The notes beneath the pieces are model-generated. The model worked only from the letters and a program-made list of their open reading frames with translations. It ran no database searches and was not told where the DNA came from. 64,000 nucleotides of DNA. It comes from Eledone cirrhosa (lineage: Eukaryota). Below are positions 8,299 to 41,050 of the stretch, piece after piece. Each line of letters starts with the position of its first letter. Position 1 is the first letter of the stretch. The DNA lies in contig OZ024749.1 in the NCBI GenBank assembly GCA_964016885.1, forward strand, positions 43,214,001 to 43,278,000, in the 5' to 3' direction. The translations under genes and the position numbers were made by a program.

Positions 8299-8694
8299 AT
8301 AAGATCAAAAGATGGTTAAAAGAGTTCCAAGTATTTTATTATACGGATTTTAAAAACAAATATCATCATGGGATGATATCTGCGTTCTCATCAGATAAAA
8401 TAGGGAGACATGATATGAAGCTTAAAAAAGACTTGTGAGCAGTGAAGATATGTTGATTTAAAACTTCACTGCTCACAAGTGTTTTTTAAGCTTCATATCA
8501 TGTCTCCCTATTTTATCTGATGAGAATGCAGATATCATCCCATGATGATATTTGTTTTTGAAATGCGCATAATAAAATACTTGGAACTCTTTTAACCATC
8601 TTATATTATATATACTCAAGTCCTACAAACTGTAGAGTGCTACTTATCCGATATTTGCATTGCTTTATTGTGCTACAATAAAACTCACCTCCTA
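8299..8694. mobile_element. Family C fold-back element
   Basis: Inverted arms about 8311-8447 and 8464-8602; ~90 nt tail with ACTC(8614)...GAGTGCT(8635); (TA)n flanks. Confidence 0.9.
8509..8579 (+). ncRNA. Minimal type-I hammerhead ribozyme (family C)
   Basis: TATTTTAT-CTGATGA(8517)-GAATGCAGATATCATC CCAT GATGATATTTGTTTTT-GAAA(8560)-TGCGCA-TA-ATAAAATA; the mirror copy at 8332-8402 has lost GAAA. Confidence 0.9.
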
Positions 8695-11600
8695 CATATA
8701 TATATATATATATATATATATATATATATATATCACCATGTCATTACCTTTTCTATCTTCTAGTTCCTTCACTTATTATCCCTCCTTCTCAGTTTTCTAC
8801 CTATTTTCCTCTTCCTTCATTACTTTTTCTTACACCTTTCCTCCCACCCTCTCTTTCCCTGTCATCTATCCCGAAGGAATTTCTGAGTACCGAAACTGAC
8901 CAAATTTATCTGACCATTCCTATCAATAACCTGCATTTCCCTCTTCTCATCGAATCAGTGACATTGTTTCTTCCAGTTGAATCCTAAACCACTTCATCAC
9001 GGGTTCTTTCCACCCCGTGTTTGTCCTGCAATCCTGAAATCCTGGACTTGAGTTTCTTCAAGAACTGCAAATTGCCGACATCAATCATACCGAACACGCA
9101 ATTTTTGCTGGATTCCATTTTGTTCGGAATTTAATAATATGCATTTGTCTTTAACAGTAATGTGTTTATTCCCCTTATATTTCACAGCAGCCTAAGCAAA
9201 CCATATTAGTTTGAACTGGTTATATTCAATGAAAATCTATGTACATCATAAGTTATTTGTCATATACAATGTTGCATCTTCTATAACATAATTTCATAAG
9301 CATTTAGAACCAGTAGACCACTGGACAGGCGTACAGAATTTGGTCGATATTATTCTTTGAATACCCTGGAAAATTTGTAATAATTATTTCCTATTTGCTT
9401 ATTATATATTTGGCTATATTCCTCTGGGTCTCTCTTTGTTTTTGCGCATCGGTACCAAAGCTATTAGGGAAAATTTGGCAGAATGTCTAATTTTATTGTA
9501 TCATGTCCTGACCTGCACAAATTTCGTTTTTTTTTCGTTTGCTATCATCTGAGCAACATCTAACGGTCATAGTATTAACATATCTATCATGCCCAAAATC
9601 CACGGAAAAGCAACAACTCAGCACGATAGGCAGTGAATCAGCAGTTACTATGTGAAACCTGAACCATTAAACATGAGGTGACTTAGCCTATATACACAAA
9701 CCACCGCACTAGCCATAAAATACAACCAGCATTCTCACATTAGTTTTTTTCTGCTATTCAATCGAAGAAAGCTTTCGGGTATATATCTGTATCTATTAAC
9801 ACCCCGGTACCTCTGGTGCACGCATATAGTTTAAGTGTCATTTTATCAATATATCTATGACGACTTATCTCACTCCCTCTCTACCCCACTCTCTCTCTCT
9901 CTCTCTCTCACTCTCTCTCTTACACACACACATTCCATCTCTGTGTATACACACTACACACAAATTCCACGTGCATGCACGACACAAGAGAAACGGATGT
10001 ATATGTATACATATATATATATATGTATATATATATATATATATATGTATATATATATATATATACATATATATATATATATATTATATATATATATATA
10101 TTATATATATATATATATTATATATATATATATATATATATATATATATATATATATATATATATATATATATGTATATATATATATATGTATATATATA
10201 TATATGTACATACACATATATATATATATATATAGAGAGAGAGAGAGAAAGAAAGAGTGTGAGAGAAAAGAAAATCCTTAAAACCTGCTTTACACACACA
10301 CACATATATACATACATACATACATACACACACACACACACACACACACACACACACACACACACACACACATATATATATATATATATATATATATATA
10401 TATATATATATATATATATATATATATATATAATACAATATATAGAGGGGAAAGACACAGAAGAGTGTGTTTTTCTTTACATGAATTTCAAACCACCAAT
10501 ATATATATGCCTCTGTGAATATGTGTGTATATATAATTTATGGTTTCACAGTTTGTAACTATATGTGTAGATATATACGTACGTACAAGAATACATCAAT
10601 ATTCATATATAGTAAAACATATATATTCTACAAGTGACAGTCTGTTCTAACCTAAACATATAACACAATCAATCTAACATATTTTATTGTATATGGCTGA
10701 AACAGAGTGACGAGCACTTTATTGTATACAACGATATGTTGATATCTCTTGCGGCAGAAGTCTGAAAGCATGTATGACTGTATGTATGTATGTATGTATG
10801 TATGTATGTATGTATGTATGTATGTATGTATGTATGTATGTATGTATGTATATACACATATATTTATATATATATATATATATGTGTGTTTGTGAGTGTG
10901 TGTGTGTGTTTGTGAGTGTGTGTGTTTGTGTATGTATATATATATATGTATATGTATATATATGCTATGTATGTATGTATATATATATATGCCTATATAT
11001 ATATATATATATATATATATATATATATATATATATATATATATACAGACATATATATTTATTGATTATAGGCAGTCTATATTCAATGGAGAAATGACTT
11101 ATCGTGTTCTTGTATTGTGCAATCTCATTTTTTTTATTTCACATTTATCTTCTGCTTTTCCTATATATTTCTCACATAGCTTATAATTGTTTCTTTTATG
11201 CTTTCTCAAATTTAGTATCATTCGACGGTAGCTCATCGAAAAACCTTATGGCTTTCTATGTCACGTTATAAAGCACTCAGAAATGTTTTACTGAATTTTA
11301 AGTAATCAGATTTATGGAAAAGTACTTCTCCACCAGGCAAATGTTATCTGTTTTATCGTCTGTTAGTACTTCATCGGCAAAGTATTTGTAAAACAAAAAC
11401 ATTTGGAAACATTCCTGAATGGCTTTCGTACATTTTAGCAAAATTTGTATTTGTTGTTGTTGTTGTCTTTGTTGTTGTTGTTGTTGTTGCTCTTGTTGTT
11501 GTCTTTGTTGTTGTTCTTGTTGCTGTTGTTGTTCACGTCTCTATATACGTGTATAATAGAGTACTCCTCTAAACTACATCTTTCTTTTATTGTTCTACAC

Positions 11601-11971
11601 TAGATACGTTACACCGTTTCTTTGAATTATATCAACAAATATGCAGAGATACGACCTAGACATACTGAATTTAAATAGACATTCAGATCTTAAAGATTCT
11701 GGCTATTCAGTATATTTGAGATTTTATTTAACCTGTTATTCTATTACTTGTTCAAGTTATTAGACTGAGGCCATAATTTGGCAGCGATTTGATTTAGTCT
11801 ATAATATTTCATCTAGTATATATTTTATTTCTCAAACAACTAAGATAAGCGTCGCAAACACAGATGCACACACACACACATATATATATGTATATATATA
11901 TATATATATATATATATATACATATATATATATATATATATATATATATATATATATATATATATATATAT

Positions 11972-12241
11972 AGGTCGAGTTTGGTCAGCATGGTTTCTTG
12001 ATGATGGTTATAAGGGGCACAGAGAGTGCTAAAATGTACGTTATTCCGGGTTGAATCGGAGGTAACCACAGTAAGTAAGGTACTCAATACATAGCAGAGT
12101 ATAAAAGTTTTAATATAGATGAGATTCTACAGGACTAGAACTGTTTCATTCTTTAGAAATCATCAGGAATCTCCTGATTCATGATGATTTCTAAAGAATG
12201 AAACAGTTCTAGTCCTGTAGAATCTCATCTATATTAAAACT
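11972..12241. mobile_element. Family F fold-back element
   Basis: Arms about 12107-12171 and 12176-12241; minus arm reads CTGATGA-TTTCTAAAGAAT-GAAA-CAGTTC; tail contains GTATTGAGTACC; (TA)n flanks. Confidence 0.8.
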
Positions 12242-12298
12242 AATATATATATATATATATATATATATAGACACGCACACACATATAATAATATATAT

Positions 12299-12380
12299 AC
12301 GAGTGTCAGCTGAAAAGTTTATAGTCTGACTAAAATTCTCTCGTGGAATGACCAAATGAGTTTTATTTTTCATCATAGTC
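12299..12380 (+). mobile_element. Possible mariner-type terminal fragment
   Basis: TA-CGAGTGTCAGCTGAAAAGT resembles mariner TIR starts; no partner TIR found. Confidence 0.35.
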
Positions 12381-40044: not shown

Positions 40045-40200
40045 TCTTTCCACTGGTGATGCGATCTCTCGGTCGCAAATTCTAGCAATATGAAACAGTA
40101 TTTTGCTGAAGAATACAAAGCAACAGCCGGTACAAATATCGAACTAAAGACCTTATGATCATGAGTCAGACAACATAATCACTTGGCGCAGTGTCTTCAT
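40045..40200 (-). mobile_element. Diverged tRNA-derived SINE (family 3)
   Basis: Colinear with 47870-48020. Confidence 0.55.
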
Positions 40201-40349
40201 TCAACATAAAAAATTATGAATAGTCTCAGCTGGACGTCTCCGTCATTGCAGGCGTGCTGGGTTCATATCGCCAGATTCAGTTACCGAAATACCAAATATC
40301 TAATTGTAATACTATGTGTGGTAGAACTAGGAAGAATACATATATTATA

Positions 40350-40430
40350 TTGGGTTGCACAAATATGAAATTTGTAGAAAAAATAAAATTTGTTAATGCC
40401 TCACTACAAATTTAATATTTGACGTCCCAA
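40350..40430. mobile_element. ~80-bp mariner-type MITE, with an extra solo TIR at 40560-40585
   Basis: TTGGGTTGCACAAATATGAAATTTGTAG / CTACAAATTTAATATTTGACGTCCCAA, TA flanks. Confidence 0.78.
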
Positions 40431-40650
40431 TATATATATATATATTCATTAATTAAGCAAAGCAAGACCACAAATTTCACAAGGAAGATATTATTAAAAG
40501 ATTGGTTACTCTTGAACTGTGTGTGTATATATATATATATATATATATATATATATATATTGGGACGTCAAATATTAAATTTGTATGTTTCGCGGCACTA
40601 TATATATATATATATATATATATATATATATATATATGTATATATATATA

Positions 40651-41050
40651 GTGACGAAACATAAGTCAATTGCATGAACTTACAATCCTGTATTTACTGC
40701 TATATATATTTCGATGATAGCCATTGAATGGCTATGACCTCATCAGGCATTTAGTCAGTTGTTAGATATGCCAGCTCTGTGTTTATAGTGTTGATGGTAT
40801 CAGAATCTTGGGACATATGGACACTATAAACACAGAGCTGGCATATCTAAGAACTGACTAACTGCCTGATGAGGTCATAGCCATTGAATGGCTATCATCG
40901 AAATATATATAGCAGTAAATAAAGGATTATGAGTTCATGCAATTGACTTATGTTTCGTCACTATTATAACTCCGGAACTTATATCTTCGTTGAGTGCTCC
41001 CTATCCGCATACTGAAGTACTGGATTTTACCAACACTTACTTTCTTGCTT
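40651..41050. mobile_element. Family E fold-back element
   Basis: ~143-bp arms 40649-40791 and 40821-40963 with a few mismatches; ~87 nt tail with ACTCC(40969)...GAGTGCT(40992); (TA)n flanks. Confidence 0.92.
40861..40916 (+). ncRNA. Minimal type-I hammerhead ribozyme (family E); mirror copy on minus strand at 40696-40749
   Basis: ACTGC-CTGATGA(40866)-GGTCATAGCCATTGAATGGCTATCATC-GAAA(40900)-TATATA-TA-GCAGT; predicted cut after 40911. Confidence 0.92.

Follow-up and report, generated by a model that had tools for sequence, protein, structure and literature searches.

Penelope-like retroelements (PLEs) that encode an endonuclease are recognized by their ends, which combine a hammerhead motif, an inverted truncated copy, a one-sided tail and a (TA)n target (PMC8557442, PMC3846280, PMC4209133; here and below, statements on published systems refer to the parts of the cited sources that were available to us). 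The origin of the inverted ends and of the one-sided tail is named as an open question in both PMC8557442 and PMC11167929. In vitro, the purified protein of the Poseidon PLE nicks and extends both strands, with two start sites that bound the tail (PMC11167929). Among the described clades, Hydra (Craig et al. 2021, PMC8557442) includes Hydra-1_Obim of Octopus bimaculoides and carries the protein motifs RWK, DKT and CxCX5C, with no CCHH motif; the repeats described here are known from their non-coding ends alone. These repeats, seven families that we call A to G, lie in a 64,000-nt stretch of an animal genome, that of Eledone cirrhosa (contig OZ024749.1, positions 43,214,001 to 43,278,000), which has a G+C content of 31% and many microsatellites; this stretch is referred to as the window. 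Judged from sequence, the repeats are 5′-truncated 3′ ends of PLEs, and their layout makes us lean toward an origin by coupled priming at two fixed sites.

Fold-back copies pair one short with one long end

Copies were located by self-BLAST, by a census of the window with family references derived from it, and by arm alignments. All 15 fold-back copies listed in the original prediction were recovered where it had placed them, and every one is arranged head to head, its 3′ ends facing outward, with one short and one long end. No inverted copy of families A to G with two short or two long ends appeared in the census, so that the pairing anticipated in the original prediction holds throughout the window. 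The fold-backs measure 90 to 450 bases and sit in TA repeats, with (TA)n flanks on both sides and alternating TA of at least nine bases adjoining 25 of the 30 outer ends. Arms overlap in 12 of the 15 copies, and arm identity ranges from 89.7 to 100%; in G16535, G26325 and G34274 (copies are named by family and approximate first position) the arms do not overlap, which makes these copies inversions and not hairpins.

The long end lies beyond the short end by a tail of 78 bases in A, 55 in B, 86 to 88 in C, 88 in D, 85 in E, 74 and 133 in F, and 113 in G. Tails were measured in nine copies, seven of which fall within the 55 to 100 nt or so first proposed, the full span being 55 to 133. The two F copies are unlike at both ends, and the short ends of G occupy two positions 4 to 5 bases apart. 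The ends are family-typical yet not always fixed: the claim of fixed, family-specific termini stands for family A, where reads support it, but not for F and G. The centre, predicted to vary, differs in every copy of the window. Within a copy the arms are 90 to 100% alike, and similarity between copies is lower (88 to 91% in C, 78% in F). Non-inverted copies are present as well, at 5756-6030, 22412-22545 and 14449-14517. Two composite insertions, at 1281-1403 and 7887-8047, add to those in the original prediction.

Reads of family A share two termini and no centre

Family A was followed into sequencing reads with window positions 13710-13861, taken from the A13659 copy, as reference. The data, two reduced-representation libraries of the same species label plus two contig sets, address termini and centres, not how often the end types pair. 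Matches were obtained for 25,063 of 12.47 million and 25,862 of 12.79 million reads, corresponding to 0.2% of either library and about 51,000 independent reads in all. At the short end, 3,503 and 3,013 reads exit into (AT)n after 13771, and a subfamily of A (1,255 and 1,346 reads) terminates at the identical short-end motif. At the long end, depth over the tail continues into the TA flank at 13849 with a drop of only ∼10%. The upstream letter stands at 13717 in 114 of 138 and 95 of 116 reads, marking the A13659 junction as rare. Family A has two common termini and no common centre; random termini or a shared centre, either of which would have spoken against the original prediction, were looked for in these reads and not found. 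Molecule ends accumulate at 13718 (7,184 and 7,278 of them); this pile was discarded as not biological, as it sits on AATT, probably the library restriction site; presumably an enzyme cutting there was used.

These data bear on the idea that the units move as finished fold-backs, in the manner of miniature inverted-repeat transposable elements (MITEs), or are artefacts of assembly. Small size, inverted arms and TA flanks do recall MITEs, and some arms are 100% identical; yet the ends are asymmetric by 55 to 133 bases, the window centres are all different, and the reads at 13717 mostly lack the assembled junction. Both termini recur in independent libraries, and in older copies the arms have diverged. 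We regard both versions as highly improbable, in agreement with the rejection of MITEs in the original prediction on the grounds of asymmetric ends and copy-specific centres; for family A, a MITE is contradicted by the two termini without a common centre.

Among the joints listed from the reads, ten are head to head. In eight of them the second arm starts at 13768-13810, at or inside the tail; the other two start at 13765 (ambiguous) and 13748 (overlapping). The joint of 13721 to 13765 was not counted among the eight, the subfamily diverging at 13758-13764. The shorter side of the listed joints is at most 51 bases, about as long as a short arm is, and many joints are supported by just 1 to 4 read starts. 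Reads also show a short end, then TA, then the long end of a neighbour; likewise, five insertions follow one another at 16535-17692 of the window (G, A, a fragment of B, a D-like copy, and D), with nothing but TA runs between them.

In contigs, family A matched 19,651 of 16.3 million in this organism versus 41 of 8.3 million in a second organism, where the short end is visible, too, hinting at lineage-specific amplification or divergence. The family A motif met two loci in metagenome contigs, both unrelated chance matches, and had no match in prokaryote genomes.

Predicted hammerheads point to the 3′ ends of PLEs

A scan of the window for the type I hammerhead motif returned seven matches, compared to a mean of 0.06 and a maximum of 1 in 100 shuffles. 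All seven lie in the repeats under study, specifically in C, D, E, F and the copy at 5756, bearing out the Penelope link that had been proposed. Their folding is mixed, with z scores of −3.0 (C), −2.0 (E) and near zero for the other five. Family G is predicted to carry a hammerhead-like motif in which CAGAAGA replaces the CTGANGA core, with a 7-pair stem I (16556-16611, minus strand, core at 16604; also 3718-3795, minus strand). Family A has the 3′ half of a hammerhead only, and the type I scan found none in family B. Among the 150 of 279 Rfam matches listed, there were only sub-threshold microRNA matches to repeats and no hammerhead.

A repeat with a hammerhead, an inverted and truncated copy, a tail on one side only and a (TA)n target has what the end of an endonuclease-bearing PLE looks like. 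Membership in the Hydra clade is quite likely, judging from the (TA)n target, the canonical hammerhead near the 3′ end and the tail hairpin described below; the first of these is also true of Naiads and is not diagnostic (PMC8557442). Naiads themselves, which have no canonical hammerhead, are contradicted for C, D, E and F by the hammerheads there. Another candidate, the non-long-terminal-repeat retrozymes, consists of head-to-tail tandem units each with a hammerhead, and was set aside; there is no tandem array of these units within the window. The full-length parent gene was not found in the window, so that we infer both clade and mechanism. As a side observation, the short arms of A at 5573 and 16738 start 0 to 2 bases from the predicted hammerhead cut, and cleaved RNA may occasionally have served as template.

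A bulged hairpin follows the short end

A hairpin fold immediately following the short end is common to families A, C, D, E, F and G and to the copy at 5756, with a 4-pair lower stem RCTC/GAGY (ACTC/GAGT; GCTC/GAGC in G and at 36771) and a 2-base 3′ bulge. The upper stems vary on both sides (TACT/AGTA, CAGT/ACTG, CAA/TTG, CGGA/TTCG, TGC/GTA, CAGG/CTTG), that of G being long. Six of the seven families carry the hairpin, at 4 to 9 bases from the short end and 14 to 53 bases from the hammerhead cut. A strict pattern, derived from the window copies themselves, matched ten times in the window, compared to a null mean of 0.22 and maximum of 2. Four decayed tails (C8299, A16722, an A fragment at 2929, and F38669) escaped it, while the tenth match, at 36771, was new and illustrates that the pattern also finds decayed copies. 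As a MAFFT alignment of the hairpins was out of register, covariation was listed from the pattern matches instead.

We then compared, by eye, the tails of published Hydra-clade elements, covering the novel Hydra consensus sequences and not the Neptune or Nematis tails. Three of six consensus sequences have the hairpin, one has it in part, and two end before any tail. Hydra-2_Amil and Hydra-2_Ajap hold the same hairpin and Hydra-1_Crog holds it with one mismatch; they come from a coral, a sea cucumber and a copepod, and each hairpin follows a TA-rich stretch (PMC8557442). The main text of that paper mentions no hairpin or stem-loop, and our literature search, which did not extend to most subscription papers such as the Penelope papers of 2004-2006, met no description of it; the conserved tail hairpin is apparently undescribed before. 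A search of the supplement of PMC8557442 for three short motifs, taken from A, B and G, gave no match, a weak test given its line-wrapped text. Conserved across distant animals, the hairpin likely marks where the short copy starts, as far as its sequence and position can tell. A half hairpin (first strand, 5-pair upper stem and bulge, with no closing strand) at 17044-17064 on the plus strand, upstream of the D-like copy at 17074, is perhaps a partial tandem.

Arm lengths and junctions favour a proposed priming of two cDNAs

The two arms of a copy can reach upstream to different extents. The short arm extends further in seven of the 15 copies (C4914, A13659, A48097, G3715, G16535, G26325, G34274), the long arm in five, and three are equal or unclear. 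This matters for a self-priming fold-back, a model put forward for Adineta PLEs on account of the palindromes found at their inverted junction (PMC3846280). In it, a single antisense strand that began at the long end would fold back and copy itself, after which the endonuclease would cut the new arm at the internal TA-rich site, possibly via the tail hairpin as DNA, and join it to the target. Such a course accounts for identical arms, strict short-plus-long pairing and TA-rich short ends, fits the endonuclease-mediated resolution to which PMC8557442 attributes the tail, and suits both A13659, joined at a template hairpin, and the near-perfect palindrome B34470. Yet it cannot directly yield the seven copies just named, because their short arm holds sequence upstream of the start of the long arm, nor an A/B chimera at 1281. 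It also has to treat the non-overlapping copies as later deletions, and random deletion does not predict what is seen in G16535 and G34274, where the long arm begins at the short site, a signature of L1 twin priming (PMC2837659). We consider self-priming unlikely.

The central junctions point the same way as the arms: over the nine that could be scored, by hand, microhomology sums to 16 bases against 6.5 expected by chance (P=0.009; range 0 to 6), in line with a check suggested in the original prediction, and four of the nine have at least 2 bases (P=0.056). Within the template, the short ends are placed in runs of TA, with a sum of 26 compared to 13.8 (P=0.02). Priming from both target strands, the core of the original prediction, is for these families the best reading of the short arms and the microhomology, together with the in vitro behaviour reported in PMC11167929. 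The self-complementarity of (TA)n, in contrast, which the prediction had invoked, is not needed, because the same layout exists at non-TA targets with ordinary duplications (PMC3846280).

If two cDNAs are primed, they might come from two independent RNA-protein particles, each picking a start on its own RNA. Dual priming of this kind has been proposed for L1 (PMC2837659), and PAc, the Poseidon protein of Anolis, is predicted to be a dimer (PMC11167929). Two particles would give overlapping arms without displacement and would explain the A/B chimera at 1281-1403, by which two templates can evidently meet within one insertion, as well as a D/D′ insertion at 7887. Independent choice, however, predicts short-short and long-long pairs, of which there are none in 15, and in A48097, A16722 and F38669 the variants of a subfamily occur in both arms, suggesting one template or one source for the arms of one copy. 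Independent particles thus seem to us a poor prospect, weaker than self-priming.

The explanation we lean toward is coupled priming. One enzyme complex, supplied by full-length parents elsewhere in the genome, would nick both strands of the (TA)n target and prime two cDNAs, one at the long and the other at the short site, both arms being antisense copies off the two target strands. If both start sites were provided by one RNA, or by RNAs of a single source gene, pairs would come out as short plus long. The bulged hairpin would be bound by the protein and thereby set the short start, a few bases ahead of it, at a TA-rich spot able to pair with the target end, and repair would join the cDNA 3′ ends at the centre with 0 to 6 bases of microhomology. 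A more far-reaching version, which we offer tentatively and with some doubt, is that Hydra-clade PLEs insert by programmed twin priming: a dimer of the reverse transcriptase (RT) and endonuclease would bind the tail hairpin RNA, nick both (TA)n strands and lay down one cDNA on each side of the hairpin. On this view, insertion would ordinarily yield an inverted repeat with a one-sided tail, and the hairpin, shared by coral, sea cucumber, copepod and this genome, would serve to position the template for an RT related to telomerase.

Several points weigh against coupled priming and against the assignments on which it builds. The main confounder is that uneven deletion of palindrome centres after insertion could mimic the seven informative copies. 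The overlap in 12 of 15 copies, up to 178 bases, is unlike classic twin priming on one RNA and would require either a tandem RNA or strand displacement. The P values of 0.02 and 0.009 are modest, in addition to junction lengths being scored by hand, and the start site of PAc is not homologous to the cut DNA (PMC11167929), unlike the TA match here. In the reads, the joint of 13773 to 13824 (53 reads, 1 to 2 starts) may be long-long, reduced-representation libraries probably under-sample hairpins, with reads piling at AATT in the arm, and the joints and loose ends are those listed, nine joints and 542 loose ends lying outside. Pfam revealed no RT or GIY-YIG remnant in the 93 of 230 candidate frames scanned, so that the clade rests on non-coding features. 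Family B has an identical layout but neither hammerhead nor hairpin. Finally, the hairpin pattern was built from these very copies, and folding is better than in shuffles for G alone (z of −4.6; others +0.6 to −1.8); as folding energy is not distinctive, the support for the hairpin is its covariation and position.

Feature coordinates and other repeats

Table 1. Fold-back and related copies, in window coordinates; (+) and (−) denote strands.
Feature	Position	Strand	Description
C copy	8299..8695		short arm left (inverted), long arm right; hammerhead core 8517; hairpin ~8614, one mismatch
C copy	4914..5335		long arm left, inverted, ending ~14 bases upstream of hammerhead cut; short arm right, extending >110 bases further upstream; hammerhead core 5233; hairpin 4995 (−)
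D copy	17241..17692		arms 100% alike over 178 bases; hammerheads 17506 (+), 17339 (−); hairpin 17612
E copy	40651..41049		hammerhead core 40866 (+), second core 40746 (−); hairpin 40969
A copy	5464..5594		long arm left; short arm 22 bases, from predicted hammerhead cut; hairpin 5536 (−)
A copy	13656..13849		short end equivalent to 13771; long end 13849; hairpin 13777; 6-base junction microhomology
A copy	16720..16870		diverged subfamily, variants common to both arms
A copy	48097..48267		third subfamily; short arm longer upstream; hairpin 48169 (−)
G copy	3715..3949		arms overlap; short arm longer upstream; GCTC/GAGC hairpin 3844
G copy	16535..16703		arms non-overlapping; long arm starts at short site; hammerhead-like motif, CAGAAGA core 16604 (−)
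G copy	26326..26416		arms non-overlapping; junction microhomology 3 bases
G copy	34275..34393		arms non-overlapping; long arm starts at short site; 4-base microhomology; (TG)n at long end
F copy	11973..12241		hammerhead core 12166 (−); hairpin 12100 (−); tail 133 bases
F copy	38666..38859		older; tail 74 bases; decayed hairpin
B copy	34471..34617		short/long layout as in the others; tail 55 bases; hammerhead and RCTC/GAGY hairpin not seen
A/B chimera	1281..1403		TA-flanked; inverted A long end plus B arm with short end; 19 unassigned bases between
D-type insertion	7887..8047		inverted tail ending ~10 bases above short site; hairpin 7969 (−); second part is a hammerhead arm, 7991-8047, stopping just beyond predicted cut
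Related non-inverted copy	5756..6030	+	has long end; hammerhead 5823; hairpin 5939
Decayed copy	36748..36865	−	detected solely via hairpin pattern (36771); CTGAGGA hammerhead core 86 bases upstream

The window contains further repeats. A short interspersed nuclear element (SINE) of ∼190 bases is present in roughly 18 copies (466-866, 12964-13138, 15830-16013, 37112-37294 and others) and, we presume, resembles cephalopod SINEs. Small symmetric MITE-like hairpins at 12401-12491, 20796-20883, 40345-40429, 42430-42510 and 62575-62700 form a contrast to the asymmetric families. An inverted pair at 46762-46873 and 47825-48020, 950 bases apart and 94% alike, with a tRNA-like head on the longer copy, is probably two SINE copies. 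At 50859-51278 (plus strand) there is a probable Tc1/mariner transposase remnant, judged from a motif and with no Pfam match; a remnant resembling a long interspersed nuclear element at 56900-57750 (minus strand) has a weak DUF6451 match, the sole Pfam match in the frames scanned. Tandem repeats (60072-60419, six units of 58 bases; 20957-21420, units of 40 bases) and an old 140-base palindrome (33887-34026) complete the picture.

Comparison with known systems

What the window displays is a real and largely known PLE signature. The novelty implied in the original prediction was too high, since the inverted copy with a one-sided tail already appears in PMC8557442 (Fig. 2) and PMC3846280, and the double-priming model is largely anticipated; new here are the genomic evidence for double priming and, apparently, the conserved tail hairpin. 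Our literature search found no paper that applies twin priming to PLEs, though the Penelope papers of 2004-2006, beyond its reach, may anticipate this or the hairpin. Young, abundant and short enough to fit single reads, the stumps would allow twin priming and self-priming to be separated by counting, and the hairpin offers a concrete RNA element for mutation in the existing in vitro system. Should the mechanism fail, a known insertion pattern and a newly noted conserved motif would be left.

The closest likeness is to the architecture of endonuclease-bearing PLEs (PMC8557442, legend of Fig. 2; PMC3846280), with its head-to-head inverted 5′-truncated copy, one-ended tail, hammerhead in the repeat and AT-rich targets. 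In contrast with those elements, the copies here are stumps of 90 to 450 bases that lack open reading frames, their tails are 55 to 133 bases long and not the quoted 30 to 40, and short and long ends are paired in 15 of 15. Within PLEs, the Hydra clade (PMC8557442) shares the (TA)n target, the canonical 3′ hammerhead, an inverted 5′-truncated copy, noted for Penelope-13_HM, and the bulged hairpin itself, which three of its published tails contain.

Poseidon PAc of Anolis (Frangieh et al. 2024, PMC11167929) is similar in that both strands are nicked and extended, two starts of reverse transcription bound the tail, and a stem-loop lies at one start; however, PAc starts inside an AC-rich stem-loop without target homology, whereas the short end here lies just upstream of a different hairpin and matches TA. 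How the two starts are paired is not treated there, nor is the inverted copy. L1 twin or dual priming (PMC2837659) likewise generates two cDNAs from opposite target strands and an inverted, centrally joined insert, but as an occasional variant, at a random internal site and with non-overlapping arms, while both sites are fixed here and most arms overlap. Short hammerhead-bearing PLE derivatives, some of them oppositely oriented, are also known as the dual minimal hammerheads of Schistosoma, on opposite strands 100 to 700 bp apart (PMC4209133), and as animal retrozymes (10.64898/2026.07.22.740005); the latter form head-to-tail tandem arrays, of which the window shows none.

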